Positions 2,131-57,610 of a stretch of 57,747 nucleotides of DNA are shown in pieces. The stretch spans positions 1 through 57,747 of the IMG/VR virus record IMGVR_UViG_3300033148_006757. The stretch is one strand, 5' to 3'. Within the stretch, counting starts at the first letter, position 1. Every line of letters starts with the position of its first letter. Source of the stretch: a virus. Lineage: Duplodnaviria; Caudoviricetes. Position numbers and translations under genes: made by a program. The notes beneath the pieces were generated by a model that saw only the letters and a list, made by a program, of their open reading frames with translations, did not search any database and had not been told where the DNA came from.

Positions 2131-2591
2131 AAAAAGGGTATCCGATCCTATTTAGAGCTTATAGTAAAATCGGGAAACATACTGGGAAAGATTTGAAAAT
2201 GAGCTTGATCGAATATAAGAAAAGATCGGGGGGAAGTGTAGGAATATCTTCTGGAATAATGACAAAAAAAAACGCTACAGTAGCGAGGTGAGTGGGCTTT
2301 TACCAGGCTAATTGCCCGCCCTTTTCTCCGATCTCCTCTGCATTATTTCCAAGAGTCTAGTGGATTCGTATACAGTTTTTCTATCCTCTTCTATCCGGTA
2401 AATAGTGATGTCCATCATGAACATCGCGGCTTTGATATCGGCTATTTGCTCGGTCGGTACCTGGATTCCTATCATCCCTTCGTAGTCGGGATTTCCTTCA
2501 TCATCTTCATACTCTTCTGCAATATTTATGGTGTACATTTCTAAAACCTCGTAGGATTTAACCTCTAAATCTAACCTATGAATTTAACCTC
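2131..2591. repeat. boundary-conserved module A (AAAAAGGGT..CCGAT ... triple AACCT)
   Basis: Left motif AAAAAGGGTATCCGATCCTATTTA at 2131; right motif GTAGGATTTAACCT-N-CTAACCTA-N-AACCTC at 2551-2591; homologues at 3859 and 57149. Confidence 0.8.
2308..2538 (-). CDS. hypothetical protein
   Basis: 76-aa ORF with GAGGT RBS. Confidence 0.7.
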   Translation of the reverse strand: MYTINIAEEYEDDEGNPDYEGMIGIQVPTEQIADIKAAMFMMDITIYRIEEDRKTVYESTRLLEIMQRRSEKRAGN

Positions 2592-2734
2592 TTATATATC
2601 TCTCTTTTCATCTTCGGTGAGCTTTTTGACCGTCTAGGCCTAAACTTTGGCCCTGATTCCTATTTCTTTTGGAAGTGTATTTTTCCATCCGGAGCTCTCC
2701 AAAAATTCATTTTAGATCAAAAAAATTTAATGAT

Positions 2735-2881
2735 CTAGAGAACTCTTCTTATTCTTCTGATCTGTTCATTTGGTCTTGAACATTCAAAATCTTTTCGGAC
2801 TTCAGCAGGATTTTCATTCCACACTCTCAAACAAACTTCATTAATATCTTCGATTTCATATAAATTATCCAAAATAGTCAC
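2735..2881 (-). CDS. small hypothetical protein (48 aa, GTG start)
   Basis: Manually translated MTILDNLYEIEDINEVCLRVWNENPAEVRKDFECSRPNEQIRRIRRVL; AGGA upstream; follows 2890..3036. Confidence 0.5.
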   Translation of the reverse strand: MTILDNLYEIEDINEVCLRVWNENPAEVRKDFECSRPNEQIRRIRRVL

Positions 2882-2889
2882 TTCCTAAA

Positions 2890-3036
2890 TTATTCTATAA
2901 ATCTATCCTCAAACATTATTATACAGTTATCCCTATCTAACTGTACACAAATTCCTTCACCACTCCCAAATTGATCTTCTACCTCTTTTTCTGAGAGTTG
3001 ATCGATACTGTCCAAAATTTTTTGTTTAATGCTCAT
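2890..3036 (-). CDS. small acidic hypothetical protein (48 aa)
   Basis: Manually translated MSIKQKILDSIDQLSEKEVEDQFG...; GAGGT RBS and TATA promoter at 3071-3105. Confidence 0.6.
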   Translation of the reverse strand: MSIKQKILDSIDQLSEKEVEDQFGSGEGICVQLDRDNCIIMFEDRFIE

Positions 3037-3070
3037 TTCGAATTACCTCTGATAGTTCTATTACTATCAA

Positions 3071-3105
3071 TTCTTAGTATGTCTTAAGAGTATATATAGA
3101 TTGCT
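3071..3105 (-). promoter_or_regulatory. TATA promoter with AAGACATACTA motif
   Basis: Minus strand AGCAATCTATATATACTCTTAAGACATACTAAG upstream of 3036. Confidence 0.7.
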
Positions 3106-3122
3106 ATTTAGATTTATCCAAA

Positions 3123-3160
3123 AAAATTTTAGAGAGCTAGGAGGAACTCTCTAAAATTTT
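3123..3160. terminator. perfect 14-bp inverted repeat, probable terminator
   Basis: AAAATTTTAGAGAG (3123-3136) / CTCTCTAAAATTTT (3147-3160), just downstream of the 3168..3434 minus-strand gene. Confidence 0.6.
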
Positions 3161-3167
3161 AATGGGC

Positions 3168-3434
3168 TTACTCAAACTCGGTTTTCTTTATAACTTTTTG
3201 TGAGTAGTGAACAATCCAATCTTCCTGAAATTCCTCTGAGGCATCCTCAGCTTTTTGGACTAATCTCTCGCGAATTTCGACAGTTCCGCACCCTTCGACT
3301 TCAGCTTTTTTATAGACCAGTCCGAACTTATTCATATATTTTTGAAGTGCTACCTCACTTGCAAAAATTTCTGACTCTTCTGGCTTTTTCATATTCAATG
3401 CTAATATACATTTGTCAATTCCTTTGCGTGTCAT
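3168..3434 (-). CDS. hypothetical protein
   Basis: 88-aa ORF, GAGGT RBS, promoter at 3491-3530. Confidence 0.7.
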   Translation of the reverse strand: MTRKGIDKCILALNMKKPEESEIFASEVALQKYMNKFGLVYKKAEVEGCGTVEIRERLVQKAEDASEEFQEDWIVHYSQKVIKKTEFE

Positions 3435-3490
3435 ATTTTTTTACCTCTCAAATTTTTATTTATAGTTTATTTTAGAGCTCTTATTTTGCT

Positions 3491-3610
3491 CTTAGTCTTA
3501 GTACGCTCCCAGAGTATATATACTTTTCTACCTTGGCTTAGTTCTAAATTATTAATCATTATAGATAGAAATTAAATAGAAAGCTTTATATACCTAGGCT
3601 GCGTACTACT
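3491..3610. promoter_or_regulatory. divergent TATA promoters sharing a GCGTACTA motif
   Basis: Minus strand TAGAAAAGTATATATACTCTGGGAGCGTACTAAG; plus strand TAGAAAGCTTTATATACCTAGGCTGCGTACTA. Confidence 0.65.
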
Positions 3611-3656
3611 AACTGAGTATAAAACTCAAATAATAAACTGAATGAGGTAATTTAAA

Positions 3657-3797
3657 ATGAGTGATCAATTAGAAAAATTAGCAAGAGCAGCACTGAATAA
3701 ACTTTCAAAGGAAGAGTTAATCGATCAACTGTCTAATAAAATGACAGTTGTAGAAATGATGGCACTTGTAGAAAAAGATTATAAAGAGACCAAGTAA
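3657..3797 (+). CDS. small helical hypothetical protein (46 aa)
   Basis: Manually translated MSDQLEKLARAALNKLSKEELIDQLSNK...; GAGGT RBS; T-tract after stop. Confidence 0.65.
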   Translation: MSDQLEKLARAALNKLSKEELIDQLSNKMTVVEMMALVEKDYKETK

Positions 3798-3858
3798 TTT
3801 TTTTTGGTCAGTGATTTGAATCACAGTGTGAATATAAAAATCATAAAAATCAATTTTT

Positions 3859-4320
3859 AAAAAGGGTATCCGATTATAAATAGAGCTTAATTATATTTTA
3901 GAAGTTATTTTTGAAGATCTTAGAAAATTAGTTCCTAAAATAGTTTAGAAAGTATTTTAAAACTATTTTAGGAAGTTTATTAGAATTATTCTAAGATTAT
4001 TATATAAATATAGCAATTAAATTCTATAATTAATTCTATAATCTTAGCTAGAGCTAGTATTAATTATTCAATAAAACTCAAAAAACCAGCTTAAAATAGC
4101 TAAAATAAGCTCATATATCGAGTTATTTTATAATTAGAATGGTAATATATGGCTAGAATAATTAATAATAGCTCATACTAGCTTAAAACTAGAATAAATT
4201 AGAAATAACACTCTAGAATTATTGTTGAGCTTGATCAGCTTAATGAAAGAATAAATATATTTTAGAAGTTTCGAAAAACCGTAGGATTTAACCTATCAAT
4301 CTAACCTACAGAAAAACCTC
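3859..4320. repeat. boundary-conserved module B
   Basis: AAAAAGGGTATCCGAT at 3859; GTAGGATTTAACCTATCAATCTAACCTACAGAAAAACCTC at 4281-4320. Confidence 0.8.
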
Positions 4321-4441
4321 CACGGGTTAGTGTTTTATTATTATAGGAATATATTTTGGAAGTGATTTTAATAATATATTATTTAATCACATTATAAATA
4401 TATTTTCACCAATTCCTAAAAATTATATTGCTTATTATAAA

Positions 4442-4633
4442 TTATTTTAATAAGCCGCTTTTATTATGATTTTTTAAATATTTATATTTTTGCCAATTTT
4501 CTTCACTTCCATGCAAAATATTATTATGAGGATTATAAATATAATTTAAAAATCCTCTTAAATTATTTTGATAGTTATGCGCTTTTGCAATTTTTTTATT
4601 TTTATTAACTTTTTTAAATGCTTTATTTCTCAT
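4442..4633 (-). CDS. small basic hypothetical protein
   Basis: 63-aa ORF with AGGAG RBS and TATA cassette at 4685-4722. Confidence 0.45.
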   Translation of the reverse strand: MRNKAFKKVNKNKKIAKAHNYQNNLRGFLNYIYNPHNNILHGSEENWQKYKYLKNHNKSGLLK

Positions 4634-4684
4634 ATTAAATTTCTCCTAAAGTTATATATAATATTATTATTTAATATTATATAA

Positions 4685-4998
4685 TATATAATAGCCTTAA
4701 TACTATATAAAGCTTTCTATTTAATATTATATTATATAACTATTAATCATTATATATAACTATCAAAAAAATTATCTACTTTTATAACCTTCTAAATTTA
4801 TTTGCATTTCTAAATCTAAATAACTATCAAAAATTCCATCTATATAAAAATCTTTATACACTTTTAACTCTCTAAATAATTCACTTCCTAATTCAAAAAT
4901 TTCCATTTAATACACTTCCTAAATTTATTTATTTACTAATTTTAATTAAATTCTCAATACTATATAATAACCTTAATCCTATATATACCTTTCTATTT
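4685..4998 (-). promoter_or_regulatory. duplicated 38-bp promoter cassette (4685-4722 and 4961-4998)
   Basis: TATATAATAGCCTTAATACTATATAAAGCTTTCTATTT vs TATATAATAACCTTAATCCTATATATACCTTTCTATTT (4 mismatches); each precedes a minus-strand small ORF. Confidence 0.7.
4772..4906 (-). CDS. small acidic hypothetical protein (44 aa)
   Basis: Manually translated MEIFELGSELFRELKVYKDFYIDGIFDSYLDLEMQINLEGYKSR; AGGAAGTG upstream. Confidence 0.45.
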   Translation of the reverse strand: MEIFELGSELFRELKVYKDFYIDGIFDSYLDLEMQINLEGYKSR

Positions 4999-5729
4999 GC
5001 ATTTTTATAATTATAATAATCATAATATATTAATATTAATATAAACTCTCAATTATAAATTTAAATTTAATATCAATATAACTCTATTAATATAATACCA
5101 CAGCTATGCTATTATTAAATAATAATTATAACATTATAATTATATATCTTAAATTATAATACTATTAATTATATACTCATTAAATATATTAATTATAATA
5201 ATAACTTATAAAAAATATCTATACTATTATAATTAATATATAACTTTATAATTATATATACACACTATATATATAATAATAATATAACTTTATATATATA
5301 TTAATGCATATATAATCACATAATGATATAAATAATAATATAATAATATATATATAATAATCATATAACTTTATAAAAAAATATATATACTCTATCTAAA
5401 TATATTAATAATAAATATAACTTAATAAAATACTTTATATATATAACTTTTCAAAAAATCATAACTCCCCCCTCCCCTTTTTTATACAGCGGGTGGCTCA
5501 TTTTACACATATATCATATTTTCCGTATTCTCCGGCGCGGTCCAAAAAATTTTCTGTAAAAAATTTTCAAGTATAAGGGTGTGGTCCTAAGTTTAATAAA
5601 AACCTTAATAATAACTCAATTATAACATTCATACAAACATCTATATATAATAAAACACCCATATCTACTAGTATCTTAGTTATTAATTTACCAAAAAATC
5701 CGATAACAACTCAATAGGGAGGGATTATA

Positions 5730-30731: not shown

Positions 30732-33506
30732 TTATGCTGTCCCGCGAATATATCTCTTCCCGTCCATTTTTAAAAAGCCTGTTTCTATCATCCTCTCTAA
30801 TATATCGTCTGGTAATGATTTTATCTGATGTCTATATAAGCCTTGATTTTTACCAGAGAATTTCTTAAGGATTCTATCCCCCCATATCTTCATTTCCATC
30901 GAATCGTCTTTAGATATATTAAAGCCTAATGCTGTAAATAATTCGGGATTAGGGATGTATATTCTATCTGATTTATATTTAGAGGCTTGAGTTAAAGCAT
31001 CAGAAACAATTCCCTGATAAAAAACCTTTGTCCCTTTCCCCATATTACCTCCACATAGTTGAATTAGATCGGACATAGCCTCTTCTGAATTCCGAGGATA
31101 TTGTAAAGATTCTACTATTACATCATTCCTAGATCCCCCTAATTGAGTATTACCCCGGACCTCTCCATCATTAATGTAATCCCCATCGTTTTTTCTAGAA
31201 TATATGATAGTTCGACCATCTATATCCGATCCATCCATGACATCCGATCCTATAGGTATTTGATACAAATTATTCAATATATTTTTCTTTGAGTCGTGAC
31301 TAGAGGTCCACCATTTACTACTGGCTATTTCGATATCTGTCGGAGTAGATGTTATACCTAGTATAGCTGAGTTACCACTACACTCTTCCATAATCTCTCT
31401 AAAACTTAGAGGTACTCTATTCTCTCCATCTGTGGTTATACATTCAATCCTTAAATCTCGAATATATTCTATAGTCTTGTCATACAACCGAGGGTTTATT
31501 CTCTTAGCAAAGATATCATTCATAATTATCTTCATGGGTTTAACACCCATTATATCATAGGTCTTAAGTTCGGGCTGACGTATATTATAAAGTCTCCTCA
31601 TCCTACCCTCATCATACTCTTCATTAAGATATATCCATTGTTTTATTTCCTCTGCGGCTTGTAATTCATCCAATCCTTCCGGAGTGATATCTCCGCTCTC
31701 TAGCATTTGTGATATTTCTTCATATTTCCTGGGTAATTCCGAGGCATCCAGAATTCCTAATTTCCTCATATTCTTTATTATTTTACGGTCCGAGATTGTA
31801 ATTTTAGGAATTTTTCGGTTGATATAGTCAATCTGGTCAATAAGGGTGCAAAAAAGGGTCCCCGATTTCAAAATCGGGATGAATGGACTATCCGGAATGA
31901 ATAGGTGATGTTTTACCTTAGAATCGGTCATCAATATGACTAAATTCTCCTCTTTCGTAGACATCAGTAGAGATAAATACACCCATTTGGCACAAGTGTT
32001 ATACTCTTCCGCTATCTTTTCATAGCGTGATAATGTACCGAAAAACGGCAAATCTCCGGTGATATAATCATCCATCAATGGCTTTAATAGCTCACGTATC
32101 GTGACTCTTTTCTCGCATCCCTTACATACTCCTGATGGAACGTAACCTAACTTTACAAACTCTGCTGCTCGTGGACATAGCTCTAAATTGTTAGGATTAT
32201 CTAAGAAACCTACTCCAGCCTTCTTTAACCTCCCGGCAATAATTTTCTTTACTTTTTTCGTGTGGGCCACGAAATTAACCCTTCCACCTTCACCTATGAT
32301 ATTTTTCATCATCGCTATTGTTGACCAGGTTTTCCCGGTATTAAATCCGTTTAGAATCACGGTATATTCGTCTTGGGTTAATATATCCTGTATGTCCTCT
32401 GCAACATATTGAAACTGTTCTATAGTCTCTCGAACTCCTCCTAGAGTCCTCTCTTCTTTTCCTTGAGTTTTATCTACTGCTACCTCTAATTTCTGATAGA
32501 TATTCTGTTGCTTCTGAATTCGGCATTCATCACAAGAGCCTATCACATATTTAGAACAACGTTCCATCAGTTTATCACAGGTGAAGGGCATTAAATTTTT
32601 ACGCTTTATAGGCCTCAGATGCTTCGAGGTCTTTCTTTTACTATATTGCTCTTGTACCGAGAAATAGGTATGAACATCTTGATCTCCCCCCCCATTTGCC
32701 ATTATCTCTGCTGCTGCGGCTGTCATAAAACTCCATCCTTCTCCCCCGGTTGTTTCTATCTTATTATCATATATAGCCTGAAAACAAGGCCGTAGTTCAT
32801 CATAAACCTCATCGAAATGAGAGGCCTTAGGGATATCATTATAATCAAGAGAATGGCTCTGATAATTTATCATATCATCTATAGGAATCCCTAATCGATT
32901 CAAATCTTCTTGCGTTATCTTATGGTTATCTATATCTCTAACTATATCACCAGTTAATTCGAGTTTATTGAAATCCTGATCTACAAAAAAGGACGTGGAA
33001 TTATATAATAAATGAGTTCCTAATGGCGGCCTTATGCCACGACCAATACCATTTTCTATAGTATCTATCGGGAATATTTCTGCATCTACTCCTACGGAAT
33101 CTACAACCTGTTTTAGGAAATCATACATCCTAGTGACCGGGAGTTCCTGAGAGAAAATCCATATATGATAACCCCTTCCACCAGTTTTCTCGACCAATAC
33201 AGATCGGCCTACTCCCAGAGATACCAATTGCTCTGATATAGATTTAATCTGGTTCTCCATTTCTCTCCAGGCCTCAGGATTATCCGATTCTCCGTGTGGT
33301 ATATCTAGATCGATGGCTCCTAGGAAACATTTTCCTTTTATGGACGGATATAATGCCAACACTTTTGTATGGTTTATTATATGGTCTTTCAGGTCCTCTA
33401 ATGTCAGACGTCTAGAAATGCGTTTATAGGAACCGTCTTTTTGCTGCTGGGCATATGTATCCCCACGAAATTTGAACAACGTGGTATACTCTTTTATGCT
33501 TATCAT
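30732..33506 (-). CDS. archaeo-eukaryotic primase fused to a PriL-like Cys domain and a degenerate SF2 helicase-like domain
   Basis: IDLD, KTGGRGYHIW, RPPLG (AEP motifs); LRPCF...FTC...C...C..C; GFNTGKT, LIDQID, TSTP. Confidence 0.75.
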   Translation of the reverse strand: MISIKEYTTLFKFRGDTYAQQQKDGSYKRISRRLTLEDLKDHIINHTKVLALYPSIKGKCFLGAIDLDIPHGESDNPEAWREMENQIKSISEQLVSLGVGRSVLVEKTGGRGYHIWIFSQELPVTRMYDFLKQVVDSVGVDAEIFPIDTIENGIGRGIRPPLGTHLLYNSTSFFVDQDFNKLELTGDIVRDIDNHKITQEDLNRLGIPIDDMINYQSHSLDYNDIPKASHFDEVYDELRPCFQAIYDNKIETTGGEGWSFMTAAAAEIMANGGGDQDVHTYFSVQEQYSKRKTSKHLRPIKRKNLMPFTCDKLMERCSKYVIGSCDECRIQKQQNIYQKLEVAVDKTQGKEERTLGGVRETIEQFQYVAEDIQDILTQDEYTVILNGFNTGKTWSTIAMMKNIIGEGGRVNFVAHTKKVKKIIAGRLKKAGVGFLDNPNNLELCPRAAEFVKLGYVPSGVCKGCEKRVTIRELLKPLMDDYITGDLPFFGTLSRYEKIAEEYNTCAKWVYLSLLMSTKEENLVILMTDSKVKHHLFIPDSPFIPILKSGTLFCTLIDQIDYINRKIPKITISDRKIIKNMRKLGILDASELPRKYEEISQMLESGDITPEGLDELQAAEEIKQWIYLNEEYDEGRMRRLYNIRQPELKTYDIMGVKPMKIIMNDIFAKRINPRLYDKTIEYIRDLRIECITTDGENRVPLSFREIMEECSGNSAILGITSTPTDIEIASSKWWTSSHDSKKNILNNLYQIPIGSDVMDGSDIDGRTIIYSRKNDGDYINDGEVRGNTQLGGSRNDVIVESLQYPRNSEEAMSDLIQLCGGNMGKGTKVFYQGIVSDALTQASKYKSDRIYIPNPELFTALGFNISKDDSMEMKIWGDRILKKFSGKNQGLYRHQIKSLPDDILERMIETGFLKMDGKRYIRGTA

Positions 33507-41110: not shown

Positions 41111-41129
41111 CAAGGATTGAATAGAAACA

Positions 41130-41221
41130 GCCCATCAAAGGTCAAATCTGGAGAGGCCTACTGTCAATTAGATTACCTCTAAAATATCATCCCAGTCTCC
41201 CAGAGACTTAATTTGATGGGT
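41130..41221 (+). other. predicted structured 5' leader / candidate ncRNA
   Basis: CCCATCAAA (41131) / TTTGATGGG (41212) enclosing AGAGG/CCTCT and AGTCTC/GAGACT stems. Confidence 0.45.
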
Positions 41222-41249
41222 CATTTCATACGGAGGTAATAAAATTACA

Positions 41250-42961: not shown

Positions 42962-42968
42962 TAATAAG

Positions 42969-44692: not shown

Positions 44693-45668
44693 TACAGTAA
44701 TTCTAGGAAATGGATTATCCGCCCTGATATGGGCGGCTTATCATCCTAATTCTGTCATAATCGGACCCGGAAAACCAGGAGGAATGGCTAAAGATATGAA
44801 AGCTCCCTTTTTCCTGCATAAACATCCGGCTACCGAAAGGTTATTGAAGGAATTAGGATTAAGTACTTGTACCAGGGAAGTGAAGGTAGGATATGCCTAT
44901 AGCAGTACCGTAGGAACTTATATCCGGGATGAACCTCCTAAAGGTTTCCGAGATAGTTATTATAGGCATAGCAGATGTTTATATACTGGGTGTTCAGATT
45001 CGGTACCTAATTCTGTAATGAATCAGGGGGCAGAGAGATTTGAAGCTTATAAAATAACCCCGGATACCTTGATCAATCAACTGATAGAAGCGGTAATATC
45101 AATCGGAGGTGTGTTTTATAGGGATATTCTTAGAAAGATAGTAGTGGATAGAGAGGTAATAGGTGTATATGGTGATAGAATGAATGCTCTATATAAAGAA
45201 GTAATATCCACCATACCTATAAACATTTTTCAATCGCTCTTACCGGAGCAGGAATATAAGAGAATATATCAGGATGATAGCCTCACTAAAATATTTCTGG
45301 AAGCCAAGGAACAAGATCCATGTACGAGGGGATATGATTTCGTATATTTATGCCCCCACCAGAAACATCCGATCTTCCATTTGTTCGCCTCCCATATAAC
45401 CCGGATGAATAATAACCACGTCACAAAGAAAACTTTTTTTGAGTATACTTTCGTAGCAGGGGCTCCGATCATCGATGAAGCTATGAAACAGTTAACAGAA
45501 ATTTATGGAGAAGACCGAGTATCTTTACACCCGGAGATATCAGTTAGAAGAGATGTAGAATGGAAAAAATACCATGGCATAAAATTCCTTGGAAGGGGTG
45601 CTCAATGGGATCATTCGATTAAGGTTCAAGATGTGGTTATGGAGGCTCAGAAACATGCAGAGCAATAA
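44682..45668 (+). CDS. FAD-dependent enzyme, UDP-galactopyranose mutase / amine oxidase superfamily-like
   Basis: Rossmann VILGNGLSA...KPGG, VISTIP, C-terminal IKFLGRGAQW; start placed at second ATG behind GAGG. Confidence 0.65.
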   Translation: MSSNTVILGNGLSALIWAAYHPNSVIIGPGKPGGMAKDMKAPFFLHKHPATERLLKELGLSTCTREVKVGYAYSSTVGTYIRDEPPKGFRDSYYRHSRCLYTGCSDSVPNSVMNQGAERFEAYKITPDTLINQLIEAVISIGGVFYRDILRKIVVDREVIGVYGDRMNALYKEVISTIPINIFQSLLPEQEYKRIYQDDSLTKIFLEAKEQDPCTRGYDFVYLCPHQKHPIFHLFASHITRMNNNHVTKKTFFEYTFVAGAPIIDEAMKQLTEIYGEDRVSLHPEISVRRDVEWKKYHGIKFLGRGAQWDHSIKVQDVVMEAQKHAEQ

Positions 45669-46254
45669 ATGGGAAGTGGAGAAGGAGAAAAAAATATGTT
45701 ACTTCGATATAGACGGGGTTTTGAATGATTATCCGGAGTGTTGGTTAAGATTTCTACGGGAAAAATGGGATAGAACAGAGCTCCCTGATAGAAAAATCAG
45801 GGATTTGAATTATGTTAAAGAACAGGTTCCCTATCAGTTGTATAGGAACTCTAAATGGGAATATCGAGAAAGTGGCTATAAAACCACCATCCCCCCCACT
45901 ACTAGTGCTTCCGAATTGACCTATAATCTGCATCAGATGAGATACCATATAGTTATAATAACCGCTAGACCTGTGAAAGAGCACCCATCTTTATTCAAAC
46001 AGACTGTAGACTGGCTGCAGAAAAATAGCATCGAATTTGATGATCTTATATTCGATGGGGATAAACATATTGCAGTATTGAAAAGGTATCCTCATTTGAA
46101 ATTCGGGGTAGAAGATCACAGATATTATGCTAACCTAGTAGCCTCTTGGGGGTATCATATGTATCTTTTAGACAGTAAATACAATCAAGGTGAGATTCAT
46201 AAAAACGTCACCAGAATAAAGAGCTTGGTCGAGATATTAGAACAATCTATATAA
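45655..46254 (+). CDS. HAD-family phosphatase (5'(3')-deoxyribonucleotidase-like)
   Basis: FDIDGVL, IITAR, DK, VEDH; start ATG 45655 behind GGAGG. Confidence 0.8.
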   Translation: MQSNKWEVEKEKKICYFDIDGVLNDYPECWLRFLREKWDRTELPDRKIRDLNYVKEQVPYQLYRNSKWEYRESGYKTTIPPTTSASELTYNLHQMRYHIVIITARPVKEHPSLFKQTVDWLQKNSIEFDDLIFDGDKHIAVLKRYPHLKFGVEDHRYYANLVASWGYHMYLLDSKYNQGEIHKNVTRIKSLVEILEQSI

Positions 46255-46275
46255 AGGCATAAGACATACTAAGTA
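46244..46275 (+). promoter_or_regulatory. TATA promoter with AAGACATACTA motif
   Basis: AATCTATATAAAGGCATAAGACATACTAAG; RBS GGAGGT at 46287. Confidence 0.7.
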
Positions 46276-46298
46276 TTATCAGAATCGGAGGTAATCGA

Positions 46299-46766
46299 AT
46301 GAATAGTCAGATAAAACCAGACCTTGTGATATTAGAAGGACCCGATAAAGCTGGTAAATCAACCATATATCAGGCCTTCCGAAGAGCTACATACTATCAA
46401 CCACTTATTATCGACCGATTTATCGGTAGTAATATAGTATATGATCAACTACACGATCGTCTAGATAAACATACAGCCCACTATAATATGGAAGTGCGTC
46501 TGAAGGATATTTTTAATCCTTTGGTAGTATATTTGTGGGCCCCGGACCACGTATTAATGAGAAGAAGTGATATGGCCGGGGACTTAGATGAAGAGAGGGA
46601 GGATATAGAAGGCATCCATAAGTACTACGAGGAATACTTAAGACTCACGCCCTTAGAGATCCTTACTATAGATACCAGTATCATTCCCGTGGACGAAGTG
46701 GTAAAGACGATAAAATGGACATTAAGTCATAGACAAAATGAGGTAAGAAACCAATGGTCAGCGTAA
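46299..46766 (+). CDS. P-loop nucleoside monophosphate kinase (thymidylate kinase-like)
   Basis: ILEGPDKAGKST, IIDRFIGSNIVY, LTIDT. Confidence 0.8.
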   Translation: MNSQIKPDLVILEGPDKAGKSTIYQAFRRATYYQPLIIDRFIGSNIVYDQLHDRLDKHTAHYNMEVRLKDIFNPLVVYLWAPDHVLMRRSDMAGDLDEEREDIEGIHKYYEEYLRLTPLEILTIDTSIIPVDEVVKTIKWTLSHRQNEVRNQWSA

Positions 46767-47401
46767 TAACAAAATCCCTTGGGAATAAGATATTTGAAGT
46801 AACCCAGTTCGGGAAGGATCGAAAGAATGGGACTCGGGAGTCTCTTAACCAGATAATGATCTTAGAATTCCCGACCCAGAAAGGTATCATTAATTCAAAT
46901 ACTAGAGAGACTGGTATAAACCTATTAATAGAGGAAATGGAATGTAAACATCTCTATGCTTCCAAGCTCGGTAAGAATTGGGATCAGAAGAACCTGGAAG
47001 AATATCATCATTACGGATTCTTAACCCATGCCCTATTACATAAAATTAACTCCGTAAAATACTTTAACGGAGAGGGCATAGATTCCAGAAAACTGATAAT
47101 ATTCTCGGACGACTGCATATCGACCATACAGTTAATAGTTAGGGAAGAGGAAGTAGGACTGTATGTACATATGAGGAGTTCTGATGCTATAAATCTATTA
47201 CCACTAGATGTAATGGCTTTGACCAATCTATTGGACAACGTTATGATGACTCATAGATTATCGGGTGAAGATAGGAGAGTAATGATCCATATAACATTCG
47301 GGTCTCTTCACATATATTCAGATGATCTGAAAATAGCCAAAGAAGTAGGAGTAAGTACCTCAGGAGAGAAGTATAATGAAACCAGCAGACGTTATTTGTG
47401 A
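46754..47401 (+). CDS. divergent ThyA-superfamily enzyme (Asp at specificity site)
   Basis: SRKLII, DDCISTIQ, MRSSDAINLLPLD, GSLHIY. Confidence 0.7.
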   Translation: MVSVITKSLGNKIFEVTQFGKDRKNGTRESLNQIMILEFPTQKGIINSNTRETGINLLIEEMECKHLYASKLGKNWDQKNLEEYHHYGFLTHALLHKINSVKYFNGEGIDSRKLIIFSDDCISTIQLIVREEEVGLYVHMRSSDAINLLPLDVMALTNLLDNVMMTHRLSGEDRRVMIHITFGSLHIYSDDLKIAKEVGVSTSGEKYNETSRRYL

Positions 47402-50275: not shown

Positions 50276-50728
50276 ATGGAAGCCTACATAGGAGGAATAG
50301 AATTCGGGTTTGGGAGAGATACTAATAATAAAAATATCTCTGTCAATATATATTTTTCGGGATGTTCTAAAGAACCTAAATGTCCGGGATGCCATAATCC
50401 TCATTTATGGAAGAAGGAAAATGGGATTCTGATGACTCTCACTTATTTGAAAGAATATATAAAAATCCAATCAACCTTAGCAGATGCTCTGGTATTCCTG
50501 GGAGGAGAACCACTAGATCAGGAATTAGCCGTTTTAGAACTAGCTGTAGTGGCTGATGATTATGGAATGAATACCTATCTATATACCGGGAAAGAAGGGG
50601 ATGAGGTTTCCGAGATAGTGAAAGATACTATAGATGTCATCATATCCGGACCATATATCAGTGAACTAGCCAATCCGATGGGAACATGGCCCCCATCTAA
50701 GAACCAAGTGATAACCAGGAAAGAATAA
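50276..50728 (+). CDS. nrdG: anaerobic RNR activating enzyme (radical SAM)
   Basis: FSGCSKEPKCPGCHNP, LGGEPL, YTG, SGPY, SKNQ; adjacent to nrdD. Confidence 0.88.
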   Translation: MEAYIGGIEFGFGRDTNNKNISVNIYFSGCSKEPKCPGCHNPHLWKKENGILMTLTYLKEYIKIQSTLADALVFLGGEPLDQELAVLELAVVADDYGMNTYLYTGKEGDEVSEIVKDTIDVIISGPYISELANPMGTWPPSKNQVITRKE

Positions 50729-50729
50729 C

Positions 50730-52619
50730 ATGCTTAAGACAACAATGCACCTAGACGATGAGTTCGAGAATCTATATAACGTTATAAATCGGTCTGAGGA
50801 TGGAAAGAAATTATTGAATCTGACCGGAATAGGACGGGAACAATTGGATGTAGGTTATCTATCTCACGCCTATTTCCAAGAACATTGGGATGAAACCAGC
50901 ACTGACCCAAATGCAAATGCAAATAATATGGGGCCCATTAACTACGGGTTGGAAATATCCAAACCCCAGTTAAAATTGATAGGCTTGTATTTACTTCACC
51001 GATATGCTAGAAAAGACTTTTCGATAGAATATGCGGATAGGCTATTGAAAAATCTGGTTAAGGGAGACTACTATTTCCATGATGCTAGCGGAGTAGGTAT
51101 TCAGCAAGCTTATTGTTATGCCTATTCTACCCAGTGGGTAATGAATAATGGAATTCCTTGGGGCCAATTAAAATCATTGCCTCCTAAAAAAGCATCCAGC
51201 TATATAGCCCAAGTTGTTGAAACTACAATGGAGATGAGTATGGAATATGCTGGTGCTATAGCTCCCGCAGATGTTCTTGTACATTATGCCTATTATTCCA
51301 AGAAAGAGGGCTTATCCCATAAAGAGATAGAGAATCATCTGCAGTCCCTGGTACATATATTTAACAAACAATTCCGACCCGGCGGACAATCACCCTTCAC
51401 GAATATCAGTATATTCGACAGGCCTAATCTAGAATCCTTATTCGGCCATATATACTATGAGGATGGTTCTAGCCCGGATTATGATGAGATAATGAAAGTA
51501 CAGAGGATATTTCTGAGATGGTTCTGCAAAGGGGATCCATCAACAGGATTACCATATCGATTCCCTATCGTCACCACAAACTTTGCTCTAGGCCCGGATA
51601 AGAACATATTGGACGATGGTTTTCTATCTGAGATAGCCGAGTATAATACTGGGTTAGGGTGTCTAAATATTCATTCCGGAACTCATGGAAAACTAGCCAT
51701 GTGTTGCCGCTTTATAAATGATCCGAAGCGAATGAGACAATTCAAAACAGATACTTTTGGGAATGGCGGATTAAATATAGGTTCTCATAGAGTGATTGCT
51801 TTAGGGCTACCCCGAATCGCTTATGAGGCTAAAGGCAATTGGAAAAAGTATATGGAGATTCTAGGGAGAAGAATGGAAGAGGTGAGAGACCTTTTAGTAA
51901 TTCATAGAGAGAGAATATTAGGGAAGAGGATAGAGCAGAATTTCTTGAAGAGTTTCCAATATAATTTGGCTCATCCTAGTCATTTCTTTTCCACCTTCGG
52001 CTTTGTGGGGTTGTATGAAGCTATTTCGGCCATGGGTTTGGATGTATCTTCTGAAGAGGGATTCAATAGAGCTAAAGAAATCACTATGTTTATGGATCTG
52101 TTGGCAGCTGAGTATTCAGAGGAATTGGGGTATGCCTTCAATACCGAAGAGATACCCGCAGAAGGAGCTGCCGTGACACTGTGTCGTAAGGATAAAATAT
52201 TACATCCTGACGATGTAAAAGTGGACATCTATTCCAATCAATTCTTCCCCCTGCATTTAGACATACCTCTATTAGAACGTATATCTAAAACTGGGAAACT
52301 AATGGAAGGAGTATCAGGAGGATCCATATTGCATATCAACATAAATGAGAAGATCGAGAATCCAGCCATAATGGAGACCCTCATGAGACAGATTATAAAA
52401 GAGGGGGTGAATCACTTCGGAATTAATTATGGATTTAGCATATGTCCGAAAGACTCCGGCCACAATTCTGCAGGAATTCATCAAGAGTGTCCTATATGCG
52501 GAGAAACTATAGAAGATTGGATGACACGGGTAGTCGGGTATTTCGTGCCTGTGAGTAAGTGGAATCCGACCAGAAGAGAGATAGACTTTAAGGGTAGACA
52601 ATGGTATAAGGAGGTATGA
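50730..52619 (+). CDS. nrdD: class III anaerobic ribonucleoside-triphosphate reductase (no ATP cone)
   Basis: YFHD, YCYA, QSPFTN, FPIVT, MCCR, PAEG, SGGSI, CPICG, RVVGY. Confidence 0.93.
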   Translation: MLKTTMHLDDEFENLYNVINRSEDGKKLLNLTGIGREQLDVGYLSHAYFQEHWDETSTDPNANANNMGPINYGLEISKPQLKLIGLYLLHRYARKDFSIEYADRLLKNLVKGDYYFHDASGVGIQQAYCYAYSTQWVMNNGIPWGQLKSLPPKKASSYIAQVVETTMEMSMEYAGAIAPADVLVHYAYYSKKEGLSHKEIENHLQSLVHIFNKQFRPGGQSPFTNISIFDRPNLESLFGHIYYEDGSSPDYDEIMKVQRIFLRWFCKGDPSTGLPYRFPIVTTNFALGPDKNILDDGFLSEIAEYNTGLGCLNIHSGTHGKLAMCCRFINDPKRMRQFKTDTFGNGGLNIGSHRVIALGLPRIAYEAKGNWKKYMEILGRRMEEVRDLLVIHRERILGKRIEQNFLKSFQYNLAHPSHFFSTFGFVGLYEAISAMGLDVSSEEGFNRAKEITMFMDLLAAEYSEELGYAFNTEEIPAEGAAVTLCRKDKILHPDDVKVDIYSNQFFPLHLDIPLLERISKTGKLMEGVSGGSILHININEKIENPAIMETLMRQIIKEGVNHFGINYGFSICPKDSGHNSAGIHQECPICGETIEDWMTRVVGYFVPVSKWNPTRREIDFKGRQWYKEV

Positions 52620-52623
52620 TAAT

Positions 52624-52953
52624 ATGAGTGGCGTAGATATTGAGTATGGAGAGCATTCCCTATCCGAGATAGGGGGTAGAATAGAAGAGATAATGAAAAA
52701 ATATTATCCAGAAAGTACAGATCAGATTGTGCCGGAGGTGATTGATGAGCTCTTAGAAGCTGTTACAGAATCATTCAATCTGAAATCCGTCGATCTGAAA
52801 CTAAAGGATCTTATTGTAGTTTCTGATAACACTCCCCAGGGGACCTGTGTAATGCTGGGAGAAGAGGAAAGGAAAAGGATATCTAATATCCGAGCCATAG
52901 AGTGGGATATAAAGTCTGATGAGATGGGCACATTAAGGATTGAACTGATATGA
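52624..52953 (+). CDS. hypothetical protein
   Basis: GGAGGT RBS; coupled to next gene. Confidence 0.65.
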   Translation: MSGVDIEYGEHSLSEIGGRIEEIMKKYYPESTDQIVPEVIDELLEAVTESFNLKSVDLKLKDLIVVSDNTPQGTCVMLGEEERKRISNIRAIEWDIKSDEMGTLRIELI

Positions 52954-53489
52954 GGATAATAGGAATAAGTGGGAGAGCTCATGCCGGTAAGGATACAGTG
53001 GCTGATATGCTGGTGGAGAAATACGGCTTTATTAAAATAGCCTTTGCGGATAGTCTGAAGGAAATGGTCCAGTACCATTATGGTTTTAAAAGAGAGGATT
53101 TATGGACCGATTATAAGACAAAAGAGGTCCGAAGGATATTACAAGGAACCGGGGAAATGATTAAAAGTTTAGAGGGAGATGATTTCTGGATACGTCAGGT
53201 GCAACAGAGAATAGTCTATAGAACTATGACCACTAAAGAAATCCCCCGAGTTGTGATATCCGATGTCCGATTCGCTAACGAAAAACGGTATGTAAAAGAA
53301 TGGTCGGGCATAACTATAAGGATAGATAGACCTGATACTGACGTAGTGGAATTCAATCCTGAGCATGTATCTGAACAAGAACTCAGTGGCTTTGATTATA
53401 TCGTAGATAATCGACAGGGTATAGCAGAATTAGAATGGAAAATAGATGAAGTAATGAAAAATGAAATCATATCCCCGGTCTCTAAGTGA
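52950..53489 (+). CDS. deoxynucleoside monophosphate kinase (T4 gp1-like)
   Basis: GISGRAHAGKDT, AFADSLK, RRILQGTG, ISDVRFANE, HVSE. Confidence 0.88.
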   Translation: MRIIGISGRAHAGKDTVADMLVEKYGFIKIAFADSLKEMVQYHYGFKREDLWTDYKTKEVRRILQGTGEMIKSLEGDDFWIRQVQQRIVYRTMTTKEIPRVVISDVRFANEKRYVKEWSGITIRIDRPDTDVVEFNPEHVSEQELSGFDYIVDNRQGIAELEWKIDEVMKNEIISPVSK

Positions 53490-54124: not shown

Positions 54125-54130
54125 GATATG

Positions 54131-54165
54131 GAAAAAGTATATAAAGGAATAAGACGTACTAGTAG
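54131..54165 (+). promoter_or_regulatory. TATA promoter with AAGACGTACTA motif
   Basis: GAAAAAGTATATAAAGGAATAAGACGTACTAGT. Confidence 0.7.
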
Positions 54166-54202
54166 TTACAGAGAATAGTTAATTAGATAAAGAGGAATCG
54201 AA

Positions 54203-55133: not shown

Positions 55134-55142
55134 GGTATTAAG

Positions 55143-55301
55143 ATGGGAAAGAAACACGGAAAGAATGGGAAGGCTAAGGGTAGGATAAAGGGATGGAATG
55201 GAACATCCTTTTTTGTACCGATCTGGATGCAGAAGAAAGATAAGGCGAGATCAAAAAAGGAGGAGAGATTAAAATATGGACCTGACATCCCCTCGGTTTA
55301 A
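55143..55301 (+). CDS. small basic protein (52 aa)
   Basis: Manually translated MGKKHGKNGKAKGRIKGWNGTSFFVPIW...; GAGGT RBS. Confidence 0.5.
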   Translation: MGKKHGKNGKAKGRIKGWNGTSFFVPIWMQKKDKARSKKEERLKYGPDIPSV

Positions 55302-55446
55302 CCAGAGAGATCTAACTCTTGATGAGAGTAAGGTCTTATTCAGAGACTGGATTGAAATGCTTACGAAGGATTACGTAGATTCAAAGAACGCCAGATTCCA
55401 GATGAGAGTAACCAAGGAAGGAGTTATAATCGGGTCGATACAATGA
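55276..55446 (+). CDS. small hypothetical protein (56 aa)
   Basis: Manually translated MDLTSPRFNQRDLTLDESKVLFRDW...; GGAGGAG RBS; stop overlaps next ATG. Confidence 0.55.
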   Translation: MDLTSPRFNQRDLTLDESKVLFRDWIEMLTKDYVDSKNARFQMRVTKEGVIIGSIQ

Positions 55447-55718
55447 AGAGATATAATCAGATGTGGAATGAGATCCCTATGCATAAGAGACCAAGACCAG
55501 GAGAAGTGTATATGTGTCTAGATCCTCAAAAGAGATTAGGGGAAGGTACATGGTCAGTCTCTATTATGAGTGGAGGAGTCGGGAATCAATGGAATGATAA
55601 CATTCAACTGGGATTATTCTGGAAAGAAGAGGTAGCGGAAATGTTCGCTAAAATGGCTGGGATGATAGATAAGGTCAAAGAACTCCAAATAGAAAGAGGA
55701 TGGGTGTTTAAAAGATGA
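55443..55718 (+). CDS. hypothetical protein
   Basis: Coupled ORF. Confidence 0.6.
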   Translation: MKRYNQMWNEIPMHKRPRPGEVYMCLDPQKRLGEGTWSVSIMSGGVGNQWNDNIQLGLFWKEEVAEMFAKMAGMIDKVKELQIERGWVFKR

Positions 55719-56011
55719 AATCGAAAGTTAGAGGGAGACCCGGGGCTGTCCCGAATGAACTTCTCATCCGACCTACTCCAGGAATTCGACTGGAAGATAT
55801 GGCTATAGGTGATAGAGTATCATATATACATCCATCCGGAGGAGGACAGCATATAGGTACAGTCACAGATATCACTAGTAGAGGTATCATTAGGACTAAG
55901 GATTGGGTAGAGGATAAGCTCAATATAGTGACAGCTAATGTTCGAGTGATATGGAAAACAGATGGGGGAGAATGGGTCCGGCAACCATTATACCGGGAGG
56001 AATCAGAATGA
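55715..56011 (+). CDS. hypothetical protein, possible SH3-like beta barrel
   Basis: MAIGDRVSY...HIGTVTDI. Confidence 0.55.
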   Translation: MKSKVRGRPGAVPNELLIRPTPGIRLEDMAIGDRVSYIHPSGGGQHIGTVTDITSRGIIRTKDWVEDKLNIVTANVRVIWKTDGGEWVRQPLYREESE

Positions 56012-56934
56012 AGCATAAATTCAGATCGATAAACTTACATCAGGCCAGCATGCTAAAGTTGTCCATGATCGATAAAATCATCCAGGAATACTTAGCAGAT
56101 GGCTATAAACTCACGGTGAGACAATTATTCTACCAGATGGTAGGTAGGGGATTGATCGAGAATGACCAGAAAGAGTATAGGAAGATCAGCAGTCTCGTCG
56201 TCCTGGGAAGAATGGGAGGATTAATCGACTTTAATGCTATTGAAGATAGGGTTAGAATCCCTAGACTACCATATTTCTGTGAGAATCCAAGGGATGCCAT
56301 AGAGGATACGATTTTAACATATCGTATAGATAGACAGGATGGTCAAGAATGGTATACTGAGGTATGGAGTGAGAAAGATGCTCTATCAGGCTTGCTCTAT
56401 GATGTGACTAGGAAATATCATGTCAACTTAGTCATAAATAGGGGTTACTCATCCTGTTCTGCTATGTATGAGGCATACGGTCGATTCGCAAAGGCTATTA
56501 CTGAGAATGGCCAGCTTGGACAGATCATATATCTAGGTGACCACGATCCTTCTGGTAAAGATATGATCAGGGATATCCAGGACCGGATGAATGAATTCGG
56601 GATAGGTAAATACATAGATGTGATCCCTGTGGCTCTCACTATGGAACAGATCGAGAAATATGATCCTCCTCCTTACTTCGCTAAGATCAAAGATCCCCGG
56701 GCCAAATGGTACATGGCTGAATTCGGGGATGTAGCTTGGGAGGTAGATGCTCTGACTCCACAGGTTCTAAAAAAAGTACTGGAAGATGCTATCACCGATA
56801 GGATGGATTTAAATCTATATATGGGGAGGCTAGAACAGGAAGAGAAAGATATTAAAGAGTTGAATGGGTTAGGTGACTTGGATAGAGGAAACTCTGGTGG
56901 AAGCATATGGGGATCCAGAGAAAGATTTTATTGA
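56008..56934 (+). CDS. Topo VI-A/Spo11-like winged-helix plus TOPRIM protein (DUF2399-like)
   Basis: LTVRQLFY, EVWSEKDAL, RGYSS, YLGDHDPSG, WEVDAL; start at ATG 56008 behind GGAGG. Confidence 0.8.
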   Translation: MKHKFRSINLHQASMLKLSMIDKIIQEYLADGYKLTVRQLFYQMVGRGLIENDQKEYRKISSLVVLGRMGGLIDFNAIEDRVRIPRLPYFCENPRDAIEDTILTYRIDRQDGQEWYTEVWSEKDALSGLLYDVTRKYHVNLVINRGYSSCSAMYEAYGRFAKAITENGQLGQIIYLGDHDPSGKDMIRDIQDRMNEFGIGKYIDVIPVALTMEQIEKYDPPPYFAKIKDPRAKWYMAEFGDVAWEVDALTPQVLKKVLEDAITDRMDLNLYMGRLEQEEKDIKELNGLGDLDRGNSGGSIWGSRERFY

Positions 56935-56955
56935 ATATAAAGAGGTGAAAATTAA

Positions 56956-57138
56956 ATGGGAACGCTAGAGGATTATGATGCCTTCCTTCAGTTTTATCAT
57001 AGAAGGATGAGGGAGGCCTGGTATCAGGCCTTCTGGATAAGGGTCCGGATTTGGATATGGGATCATGAGCTTTCATTAGTATTAATATCGGTCGGGAGCA
57101 TACTCGGAATACTATGGTATATAACTGAAATCCTGTGA
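56956..57138 (+). CDS. small membrane protein
   Basis: GAGGTGA RBS; C-terminal TM segment. Confidence 0.6.
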   Translation: MGTLEDYDAFLQFYHRRMREAWYQAFWIRVRIWIWDHELSLVLISVGSILGILWYITEIL

Positions 57139-57148
57139 ATAGGGGGCT

Positions 57149-57610
57149 AAAAAAGGGTCCCCGATCCTATTTAAGGTTCCGAAAAAATACTGGAAAATTT
57201 TTCGGAACCACAGCCCTTTTTTCGCCAGGATTCCCTAGAATTATTTCTCATTTATTTTCAGAATAAACCGGGGTGATATATCATAAAAAATAGAATGAAG
57301 GCTAGAGAACTCATAGAAAATTTTCCATATATTTTCACAGCAGTCACGGACATAATAGGATTAATGTTATATGAATCAATGCCCTAATCCGTAGGAATAG
57401 TTTTAGCATTAATGCAGGAATATCTCAATAATAACATAGCAGATAATGGCAGAATAAACATAATTATCTCAGAGATTCTTAACATCATGGCTGATAAAGA
57501 TAGTGATTTATCATATATTTTAAAACAAGGATCCGGAGAGAAAAAAATTCTTAGGAATACCGAAAATCCACGAGGAATTAACCTGTGAAATTAACCTATA
57601 AAATAACCTC
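57149..57610. repeat. boundary-conserved module C, with nested inverted repeat
   Basis: AAAAAAGGGTCCCCGATCCTATTTA at 57149; GGTTCCGAAAAA/TTTTTCGGAACC at 57175-57209; CGAGGAATTAACCT...TTAACCTA...AACCTC at 57571-57610. Confidence 0.8.

Follow-up and report, generated by a model that had tools for sequence, protein, structure and literature searches.

What is known of gene regulation in archaeal viruses comes from a handful of cultured models. In the auxiliary-operator repression loops of bacteria and phages (lac O1-O2, gal, deo and lambda OL-OR) the sites lie a few hundred bp apart and helical phase matters. For T4-type phages, PMC2839356 and PMC4122927 describe PeSLs (promoter-early stem-loops), short motifs repeated in a hyperplastic ORFan region where they flank unrelated cargo and mark the positions at which close relatives differ by insertion, deletion or replacement. 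In the archaeal fusellovirus SSV1, the account in PMC5569661 has one small repressor, F55, with tandem-repeat operators in or next to several early promoters.

We report three 0.46-kb units (modules 1 to 3) in an uncultivated archaeal-type tailed virus, which have only their two end sequences in common (Table 1; the window, i.e. the whole stretch of DNA analysed, comprises 57,747 nt). Our preferred reading, to which we give a probability of roughly 40%, is that leftward cassettes of a hyperplastic early region use the end motifs as common cis-regulatory brackets, with a tandem-repeat operator or leader on the right and a 3' box with a T-run on the left. The left motif, AAAAGGGTMYCCGAT, is exact at 2132-2146, 3860-3874 and 57151-57165, the right motif lies at 2553-2578, 4283-4308 and 57573-57598, and the distance from GGGT to AGGA is 417, 419 and 418 bp in modules 1, 2 and 3, respectively. 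With up to two mismatches the left motif has five matches against 0.58 expected (0 of 100 shuffles reach five), and with up to three mismatches the right motif has three against 0.00 expected (100 shuffles). Conservation extends beyond the motifs given in the first-pass annotation, over 55 nt in the left block (80% identity between modules 1 and 2, 62% between modules 1 and 3) and over at least 29 nt in the right block (93% and 72%, respectively), and profiles built from the three copies match only these sites and a fourth left copy (E = 3.6e-4). The AACCT starts are spaced 13/13 bp in module 1 and 13/12 bp in modules 2 and 3; the AACCT/TAACCT words are kept while the 7-8-nt spacers vary among four copies (that of the relative discussed below included), which is the pattern expected of protein-binding sites. 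The module 1 ORF is present at 100% identity on four contigs and a module 3 ORF on three (the longest contig being 61846 bp), and their occurrence on further contigs rules out an assembly quirk of this record.

Table 1. Positions of the module blocks and associated features in the window
Feature	Position	Strand	Evidence
Left block, module 1	2107..2161		repeat family, motif and profile matches
Hairpin CGCTACTGTAGCG followed by T9, terminator-like	2264..2285	-	sequence reading, T-run list; kept in the relative
Gene for acidic 76-aa protein, cargo of module 1	2308..2538	-	homologues, AlphaFold2
Right block, module 1; AACCT at 2560, 2573, 2586	2541..2592		repeat family, motif and profile matches
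Purine tract and TATA-like GATATATAAG adjoining the repeats, plus stretch annotated mechanically as 26-aa ORF	2593..2688	-	
Left block, module 2	3835..3889		repeat family, motif and profile matches
Interior, module 2	3890..4270		21% GC, many inverted repeats
Right block, module 2; AACCT at 4290, 4303, 4315	4271..4320		repeat family, motif and profile matches
Fourth left block, inside primase-helicase ORF (30732-33506, - strand)	31807..31866		repeat family, motif and profile matches
Left block, module 3, CCCC subtype	57126..57180		two repeat families, motif and profile matches
Hairpin GGTTCCGAAAAA...TTTTTCGGAACC bracketed by AAAAAAGGG and CCCTTTTTT	57175..57222		sequence reading, folds, T-runs
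Right block, module 3; AACCT at 57580, 57593, 57605	57562..57612		repeat family, motif and profile matches

Between the blocks, the GC content is 41%, 21% and 31% in modules 1, 2 and 3, and the interiors have no significant similarity to each other, whether compared ungapped, by profile or by local alignment in both orientations; they are also dissimilar in the reduced alphabets R/Y, W/S and M/K. Judged by shuffles and alignments, the two end motifs, their near-constant spacing and the unrelated interiors noted in the first-pass annotation are all real and far beyond chance, and no method run aligned the interiors as diverged duplicates. That the modules are nevertheless old duplicates of one cassette, with selected ends, replaced or saturated interiors and an equal length that is a functionless leftover, we regard as unlikely. 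There are two subtypes of left block (modules 1 and 2 versus module 3 and the primase-helicase copy), and the homology within them, 55-60 nt long, speaks for copying rather than convergence; moreover, the module 1 ortholog in the relative differs by just one 1-nt indel at ~25% divergence. However, uniform divergence is excluded, since modules 1 and 2 share 80-93% identity at their ends whereas their interiors are at the random level and differ in GC content, and replacement by unrelated DNA would not keep the length within 1 bp twice (were lengths free to vary over several hundred bp, a rough estimate is of the order of 1e-5). A diversity-generating or hypervariable cassette was ruled out: the interiors are unrelated in every alphabet and that of module 1 is conserved in the relative.

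DNA was compared for one relative, L070, a 1571-bp contig of a Thermoplasmata MAG that keeps the whole of module 1 at 418 bp. The left core (2131-2152, reading AATAGGATCGGATACCCTTTTT on the - strand) is identical at 22 of 22 positions and its flanks at ~75%, while the right block is 90% identical as compared to 72% at third codon positions and 74-76% in the non-coding interior (neutral ~73%). The end blocks are thus more alike than neutral sites, which argues that both ends of module 1 are under selection. Variable spacing in relatives, which would speak against the first-pass annotation, was not seen, but this pair belongs to a module 1 ortholog and hence gives no independent test; the suggestion of exchangeable cassettes fits poorly with a module 1 that is whole in the relative, i.e. 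without swapping at that time scale. Homology falls to 42% ~30 nt past the left T-run, just outside the left block; in this one relative the left boundary of homology coincides with the left block and the right boundary is ~90 nt beyond the right block. Two ORFs of 48 aa and one of 108 aa are missing from the relative, and the region differs by indels of whole small genes. The right block sits in a 5' leader in module 1 and in the relative; the relative has not kept the TATA element that adjoins the module 1 repeats but has a standard promoter further upstream, so that the right block is no basal promoter.

The 76-aa ORF is a real, conserved gene, and describing all three modules as non-coding was wrong for module 1. 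Its product has 10 homologue clusters (64-89% identity, 76-79 aa, one of them a 128-aa read-through) and an AlphaFold2 pLDDT of 80.9, with no PDB fold match at E <= 0.001 and no Pfam or PHROG matches. A GAGGT Shine-Dalgarno sequence precedes the ATG by 8-9 nt and comes straight after the right block, which on the - strand reads AGGTTAAATTCAT, AGGTTAGATTTAG and AGGTTAAATCCTACG and then the Shine-Dalgarno sequence; the block is also visible in translated form in the read-through homologue (P0131). The hairpin with T9 is the gene's own terminator-like site, ~130 nt before the left core. The stretch annotated as a 26-aa ORF is 90% conserved relative to the relative's DNA, and since seven codons differ non-synonymously and one synonymously (the stop) the constraint looks to be at the nucleotide level.

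The interior of module 2 has no ORF of at least 25 aa and is flanked by an exact 14-nt direct repeat (3893-3906 and 4257-4270). It is a self-complementary array of AGCT and TAGAA words, with AGCT nine times (0.6 expected) at 9-10-bp steps, CTAG six times (0.6 expected) and ten copies of TAGAA. The distinct conserved ends around unrelated interiors in the three modules, together with this direct repeat in module 2 and the loss of homology to the relative near the left end, are features that non-autonomous mobile elements (MITE-like or IS200/605-derivative-like, whose left and right ends differ and enclose passenger DNA) might leave. We consider such an origin very improbable: terminal inverted repeats and conserved subterminal hairpins are absent, no target duplication is common to the three units, the ORFs scanned contained no recognisable transposase or integrase, no further module copies were found elsewhere in the window or in IMG/VR, JGI metagenomes or a host-like MAG, and a fixed length is not a property of transposons.

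The fourth left block has the exact motif at 31852-31866, with the box on the sense strand of the primase-helicase ORF, in which the block encodes ...KSGTLFC...; it is 70% identical to the left block of module 3 over 60 nt, 17 nt of which match exactly. No convincing right partner was found for it, the best right-like stretch near +421 ranking 45 among 5768 windows and at 442nd place or lower by PWM. The motifs form three pairs at near-constant distance, and the left motif also occurs alone. Its location within this ORF brings replication or segregation to mind, with the left box as a site for the primase-helicase or another initiator, the 13-mers as an initiator-binding or unwinding array, and the modules as origin- or centromere-like sites bridged at a fixed distance. 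The three tandem 12-13-mers of the right block, the 21%-GC, inverted-repeat-rich interior of module 2 with its regularly stepped AGCT words, a spacing that appears indifferent to interior content, and the location of the modules next to a non-coding-like zone of 21% GC and to the minimum of the cumulative GC skew (~4-6 kb) would agree with this. However, module 1 has an ordinary 41%-GC gene as its interior, conserved in relatives, the period of 12-13 bp does not fit iterons, for which 11 or 22 bp is typical, it would be unusual to have three origins within a few kb, and the skew signal is confounded by gene orientation; on balance, such a role appears rather unlikely. An iteron-type origin in particular was rejected on the repeat period, on an AT-rich interior being present in module 2 only, and on the gene inside module 1.

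One strand carries all left copies (4/4) and all right copies (3/3). The left blocks of modules 1-3 start 134, 62 and 12 nt past + strand stop codons (1997, 3797 and 57138), the predicted leftward-transcribed stretches of modules 1 and 2 end at left-block junctions with + strand genes, and TATA-like elements are present 1-20 nt upstream of the repeats at all three right blocks in the window; in module 3, what would be upstream on the - strand is past the window end. Far from being feature-less, the modules are oriented units tied to predicted leftward transcription, and they sit where it meets the ends of + strand genes. They are located in a variable region of small genes between replication and structural genes, where nine small ORFs (2308-4906) gave no PHROG matches. 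The left box ends in CCCTTTTT(T), and T5-T6 is present on the - strand in 4/4 left copies, three at convergent junctions and one inside an ORF; runs of at least T6 are, however, common (70 in the window, many within genes), and a T-run alone is weak evidence of termination. In module 3 the box mirrors the opposite-strand CCCTTTTTT around a 12-bp hairpin, and as read from the sequence this hairpin resembles a terminator acting in both directions, placed where the long + strand operon ends.

The common orientation relative to leftward transcription, the right block in the 5' leader (module 1 and the relative) and the T-run at the end of the left box might also point to an RNA-level element, i.e. 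leftward transcripts of ~440 nt with shared 5' and 3' ends for RNA processing, stability or protein binding. Module 2 does fold far better than shuffles (z-scores -5.9 on the + strand and -3.1 on the - strand), but modules 1 and 3 do not (z +0.4 to -1.2). There is no conserved pairing within or between the ends, the complementarity in module 1 is absent from modules 2 and 3, no Rfam family (gathering score) and no tRNA or tmRNA was matched in the whole window, and we know of no reason for a fixed RNA length; we judge this alternative improbable.

Our preferred reading of the end motifs as cis-regulatory brackets finds support in the one-strand copies, the + strand gene ends, the module 1 gene behind its right block and the conserved ends in the relative. 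The whole-gene indels nearby are as in hyperplastic phage regions with repeated promoter/terminator cassettes, and F55 of SSV1 sets a precedent for tandem-repeat operators common to several early promoters. Read on the - strand, a unit would open with the right block, i.e. a purine tract/TATA-like element, three AGGTTA direct repeats of 12-13 bp and a conserved leader, acting as a tandem-repeat operator or 5' leader to which one regulator, encoded by the virus or its host, would bind. It would close with the left block, in which a box of 16-22 bp (ATCGGRKACCC) leads into T5-T6, as a 3'-end or termination box that may bind a factor too. The cargo would be arbitrary (the 76-aa gene in module 1, the AT-rich AGCT/TAGAA array in module 2, something else in module 3), and the ends would stay alike through the same factors and recombination between copies. 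The ~418 bp (~40 helical turns) would be kept as the ends cooperate, probably through a DNA loop held by protein, by which the unit would be silenced or insulated. Binding of proteins, termination and looping at the blocks are what we infer from the sequence.

Several observations count against this reading. The strand and the transcript starts and ends are all deduced, the module 1 gene has its own hairpin and T9 before the left box, the ORF listing shows nothing on the - strand that follows the leader in modules 2 and 3, and one left box is within the primase-helicase ORF. Promoter or terminator duty needs no fixed 418 bp, and a constraint on helical phase would also permit 418 bp plus or minus multiples of 10.5 bp. 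Finally, no RHH or HTH regulator was recognised at E <= 1 among 12 neighbouring ORFs.

Looping, a form of the geometric function proposed in the first-pass annotation, is the only idea that would account for the constant spacing. In its boldest, and doubtful, form the unit might be a length-gauged DNA bracket: two different predicted protein-binding sites ~40 turns apart that accept any cargo (a gene, a site array or non-coding DNA), so that in an archaeal virus a loop would serve to insulate or silence the unit, and the primase-helicase gene would hold one further half-site. The virus belongs to an uncultivated lineage, and its sole DNA relative found here is in a Thermoplasmata MAG. If partner sites work only at a set distance, they would constitute a compact, cargo-independent regulatory or architectural unit, through which DNA looping in archaeal chromatin could be approached directly by experiment; if the blocks are no more than a shared operator and terminator, they would be the archaeal equivalent of those repeated regulatory cassettes by which genes are shuffled in T4-type phages.

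As with PeSLs, the setting is hyperplastic, with small non-conserved genes (the 2308-4906 ORFs and the gene losses in the relative), some of which are present in one genome and absent from the other. Homology to the one relative stops at the left block, as it might at a PeSL, and on the other side ~90 nt outside the right block. A PeSL is, however, one composite of a sigma-70 promoter and a stem-loop, whereas here two dissimilar blocks are at opposite ends ~418 bp apart, the signals are of archaeal type, a stem-loop is present only at the module 3 left block (two of three left blocks lack one), and the distance between blocks is fixed, a feature not reported for PeSLs in the portions of PMC2839356 and PMC4122927 considered here. 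The F55 operators, as far as the excerpted account of them goes, may be compared with the three sites in the window at which a TATA-like element is followed closely by AGGTTA in triplicate, although the relative lacks this TATA at module 1; the word repeated is another one, as are its number (3) and its period (12-13 bp), the ORFs nearby yielded no recognisable RHH protein (12 ORFs, E <= 1), and the F55 sites, in that account, have no distant partner motif at a fixed distance, which is present here. The likeness to auxiliary-operator loops, as proposed, is that two predicted protein-binding sites a few hundred bp apart would cooperate by looping; there both sites are copies of one operator, whereas here the end sequences are unrelated, the system would be an archaeal or viral one, and three equal-length loops would form around different DNA.

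We report that the left motif is present in exact form in modules 1, 2 and 3 (at 2132, 3860 and 57151) and once more at 31852; with up to two mismatches allowed it gave five matches, compared with 0.58 expected, and none of 100 shuffles reached five. The right motif occurs three times in the window and never in 100 shuffles, with its AACCT words spaced 13/13, 13/12 and 13/12 bp in modules 1, 2 and 3, respectively. The distances between GGGT of the left motif and AGGA of the right motif are 417, 419 and 418 bp, which bears out the first-pass annotation in that two end motifs lie at a near-fixed distance. The conserved blocks around the motifs cover approximately 55 nt (left) and 50 nt (right), modules 1 and 2 being the closest pair (80% identity for the left and 93% for the right blocks), and block profiles run over the window gave no further site besides the fourth left copy. 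The interiors were likewise correctly described as unrelated: their GC contents are 41, 21 and 31%, and no similarity was detected in ungapped registers, in local alignments in both orientations or with reduced alphabets, nor did the other interiors match a profile built on module 1 plus its ortholog. With cassette lengths free to vary over hundreds of bp, we estimate, rather than compute in a formal test, the odds of two further spacings within 1-2 bp of the first at roughly 1e-5.

The fourth left copy included, every motif copy lies on the same strand. The left blocks are positioned 134, 62 and 12 nt past the stops of + strand genes (1997, 3797 and 57138 for modules 1, 2 and 3), and gene orientation gives leftward transcription of the DNA right of modules 1 and 2 (right of module 3 the window ends). 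Hence, on the - strand a unit opens with the right block and closes, at a convergent junction, with the left block. Read in this direction, the right block has a purine tract or a TATA-like element, three copies of AGGTTA and then AATCCTACG, which in module 1 is followed by GAGGT, ATG and a 76-aa ORF, while the left block reads ATCGG(A/G)(T/G)ACCC and then T5-T6. In module 3, CCCTTTTTT on the opposite strand mirrors the T-run, with a 12-bp hairpin between the two, an arrangement with the look of a two-way terminator; in module 1 the gene has its own hairpin and T9 directly 3' of it, leaving about 130 nt to the left box.

Coordinates of features in the window and identities to L070, the contig that carries the ortholog of module 1
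Feature	Position	Detail	Identity to L070
TGAACAT/ATGTTCA cluster	383-519	both strands	
260-aa ORF	556-1338		
108-aa basic ORF	1671-1997		
Module 1	2132-2578 (outer motif ends)		
Stretch upstream of right block			90%
Right block			90%
Coding sequence		third codon positions 72%	81%
Non-coding interior			74-76%
Left block overall			75%
Left core		22 nt	22/22 identical
Past about 30 nt beyond T-run			42%
26-codon ORF	2608-2688	just upstream of module 1 right block	90% (DNA)
Module 2	3860-4308 (outer motif ends)		
21%-GC zone	4330-5560	G/C-rich island at about 5460-5545	
Fourth left block	31807-31866	inside primase-helicase ORF, sense strand; encodes KSGTLFC	
Nucleotide-metabolism gene set	37679-47401, 50276-53489		
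ThyX-like ORFs, three	42969-43715, 43712-44692, 46754-47401		
Topoisomerase-VI-A-like ORF	55951-56934		
Module 3	57151-57598 (outer motif ends)		
ORFs of 30 and 58 aa in module 3	57295-57588	+ strand, one frame	
Promoter family (TATATA, ~10 nt, TAAGACATACTAAG-like)	3069-3103, 3496-3530, 3571-3592, 4704-4725, 19300-19340, 30700-30740, 35400-35440, 46243-46277, 54130-54170		

The fourth left block is 70% identical over 60 nt to that of module 3, with 17 nt exact, and the left blocks form two subtypes, module 1 with module 2 and module 3 with the primase copy, a pattern that points to copying. A right-like stretch approximately 421 bp from the fourth left motif was rejected as its partner, as it ranked 45 among 5768 windows and, when scored by PWM, no higher than 442nd. 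We likewise rejected the view that module 3 derives from the primase segment by decay, since the match is confined to the left 60-78 nt and the rest of the module has no resemblance to the primase gene. That history alone lies behind the modules is a rival explanation in which such copying would have its place; with ends 80-93% identical and interiors random, uniform divergence is excluded, and replacement of the interior would not keep its length.

The only relative's DNA compared was L070, a 1571-bp contig in a Thermoplasmata MAG, covering the module 1 region, and the host assignment depends on this one small binned contig. It aligns throughout to the - strand of 2107-2683 and its motif spacing is 418 bp. 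The contrast in identity between ends and interior (see table) argues that both ends are under selection. The module 1 interior, judged from this alignment, is inherited and not swapped, and the proposal of exchangeable cassettes is not supported for module 1 at this time scale. The TATA element beside the module 1 repeats is lost in L070, where a standard promoter precedes the upstream stretch, and consequently the right block is not a basal promoter. The 26-codon ORF differs from L070 by seven non-synonymous changes and one synonymous change (7/8 differing codons alter the residue) and is probably not a gene but a conserved nucleotide (non-coding) element. L070 has neither the two 48-aa ORFs nor the 108-aa ORF found in the window; the region therefore gains and loses whole small genes. 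The 108-aa ORF, with three or four internal Y-x-K-E-W-(R/N)-K repeats, had no family match, and L070 lacks it at the equivalent position. The 260-aa protein is kept beside module 1 in L070, and directly upstream of its ORF some eight copies of TGAACAT/ATGTTCA (as TAGTGAACATA) constitute what is probably an operator or binding array of this protein.

L070 has the pair at 418 bp, a spacing that reflects orthology. None of the loci from exact-motif scans of IMG/VR (33 right, 26 left) had the partner motif within a 1 kb flank. Several of the left-motif matches were discarded as ordinary hairpin terminators of unrelated phages. No match was obtained in a right-motif scan of JGI metagenome contigs or in blastn of module DNA against GenBank phages, and no relatives' DNA was found via the 260-aa ORF, or via the capsid-region ORF in IMG/VR or GenBank phages. 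The topoisomerase-VI-A-like ORF retrieved six distant loci in metagenomes and one contig of 71% GC, all lacking the motif pair; this protein (DUF2399-type) has thousands of homologues, with many bacterial phages among their sources (36-47% identity), and is therefore uninformative on host. Alignment searches with the 76-aa gene gave nothing in IMG/VR and only L070 among genome contigs, the host-like MAG G001 being the sole positive among 401 genomes of its class; no other parts of the virus were found in G001 with the queries used. In a survey of sequencing runs, one DNA run contained 5% of the sampled words and no RNA run was listed. That the modules are mobile elements is a further rival explanation. 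The literature searched had no mention of comparable spaced motif pairs or of the virus group.

The 76-aa protein of module 1 is acidic and has 10 homologue clusters (64-89% identity), nine of 76-79 aa; the tenth, P0131 from another relative, is a 128-aa read-through of upstream DNA in which repeats two and three, together with the leader, are translated almost unchanged. The predicted fold of the 76-aa protein (pLDDT 80.9) matched no solved fold at E <= 0.001. ORFs of at least 25 aa are absent from the module 2 interior, which is dense in inverted and direct repeats, almost all G and C being within AGCT (9 vs 0.6 expected), CTAG (6 vs 0.6) and TAGAA (10 copies) words, with the AGCT words at 9-10 bp steps in three small groups. 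Derivation of module 2 from module 1 by deamination was rejected on the basis of ungapped registers and reduced alphabets. Module 3 has short ORFs only; among them, two + strand ORFs of 30 and 58 aa, separated by one TAA and eight codons, could be a broken gene or chance, and the 58-aa ORF was dismissed as a conserved gene because its only recorded relative is an identical protein. With respect to an RNA-level role, another rival, the folding of module 2 is far stronger than that of its shuffles (z -5.9 on the + and -3.1 on the - strand), for modules 1 and 3 it does not exceed the level of shuffled sequence, no Rfam family or tRNA was found, and the left and right ends were rejected as inverted repeats or an RNA panhandle, as the complementarity in module 1 is lost in modules 2 and 3.

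The window, 57,747 bp long, is a linear virus record from IMG/VR (CheckV completeness 66%) with ORFs for the terminase large subunit, tape-measure protein and other tail proteins, a family-B DNA polymerase, a 924-aa AEP primase fused to a P-loop helicase domain, an XPD-like helicase, an RFC-like AAA+ protein, NrdD/NrdG and several ThyX-like and nucleotide-kinase genes. The nucleotide-metabolism set is unusually rich, also including a dCTP-deaminase-like ORF, thymidylate kinase, dNMP kinase and a PNK/HAD-like ORF, and hints at a modified base in virion DNA. Proteins identical to those of the window are encoded by a 61,846-bp contig, and close relatives are on 62-63-kb contigs; therefore approximately 4 kb is absent between the two window ends, so that module 3 (57.1 kb) falls on the side where modules 1 and 2 (2-4 kb) are found. 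This missing part, between module 3 and the window start, could hold more modules. Many genes are preceded by archaeal-type promoters, a TATATA box and after ~10 nt TAAGACATACTAAG-like words, and two copies, 3571-3592 and 4704-4725, form a perfect 22-nt inverted pair driving convergent small genes that flank module 2 on both sides. AT-rich repeats are numerous in the 21%-GC zone, which also has two tiny ORFs and gives way to the G/C-rich island; genes switch there from leftward to rightward and cumulative GC skew has its minimum, making it a candidate replication origin.

The simplest reading is that the motifs are paired cis-regulatory elements, shared among leftward units of a hyperplastic early region and marking their boundaries, because this fits the strand, the position, the module 1 gene start and the selective conservation of both ends; a role of the modules in replication or segregation is a rival to it. 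An operator, a 3' box and behaviour like that of PeSL cassettes do not account for the constant 418 bp, and for this reason we add that the two ends might cooperate across a loop of ~40 turns. Distances of ~40 helical turns are favourable for looping. We give boundary elements with such a loop, taken as a whole, a tentative probability of about 0.4. The right block, with its conserved words, free spacers and adjoining TATA-like elements, would act as a tandem-repeat operator or leader and in this is like the F55 sites of SSV1, as far as these are described in the source (PMC5569661). Finally, the left block would be a T-run 3' box plus an added recognition sequence, and the present region resembles in its behaviour the PeSL-shaped regions of T4-type phages, to the extent covered in the reports on them (PMC2839356, PMC4122927).
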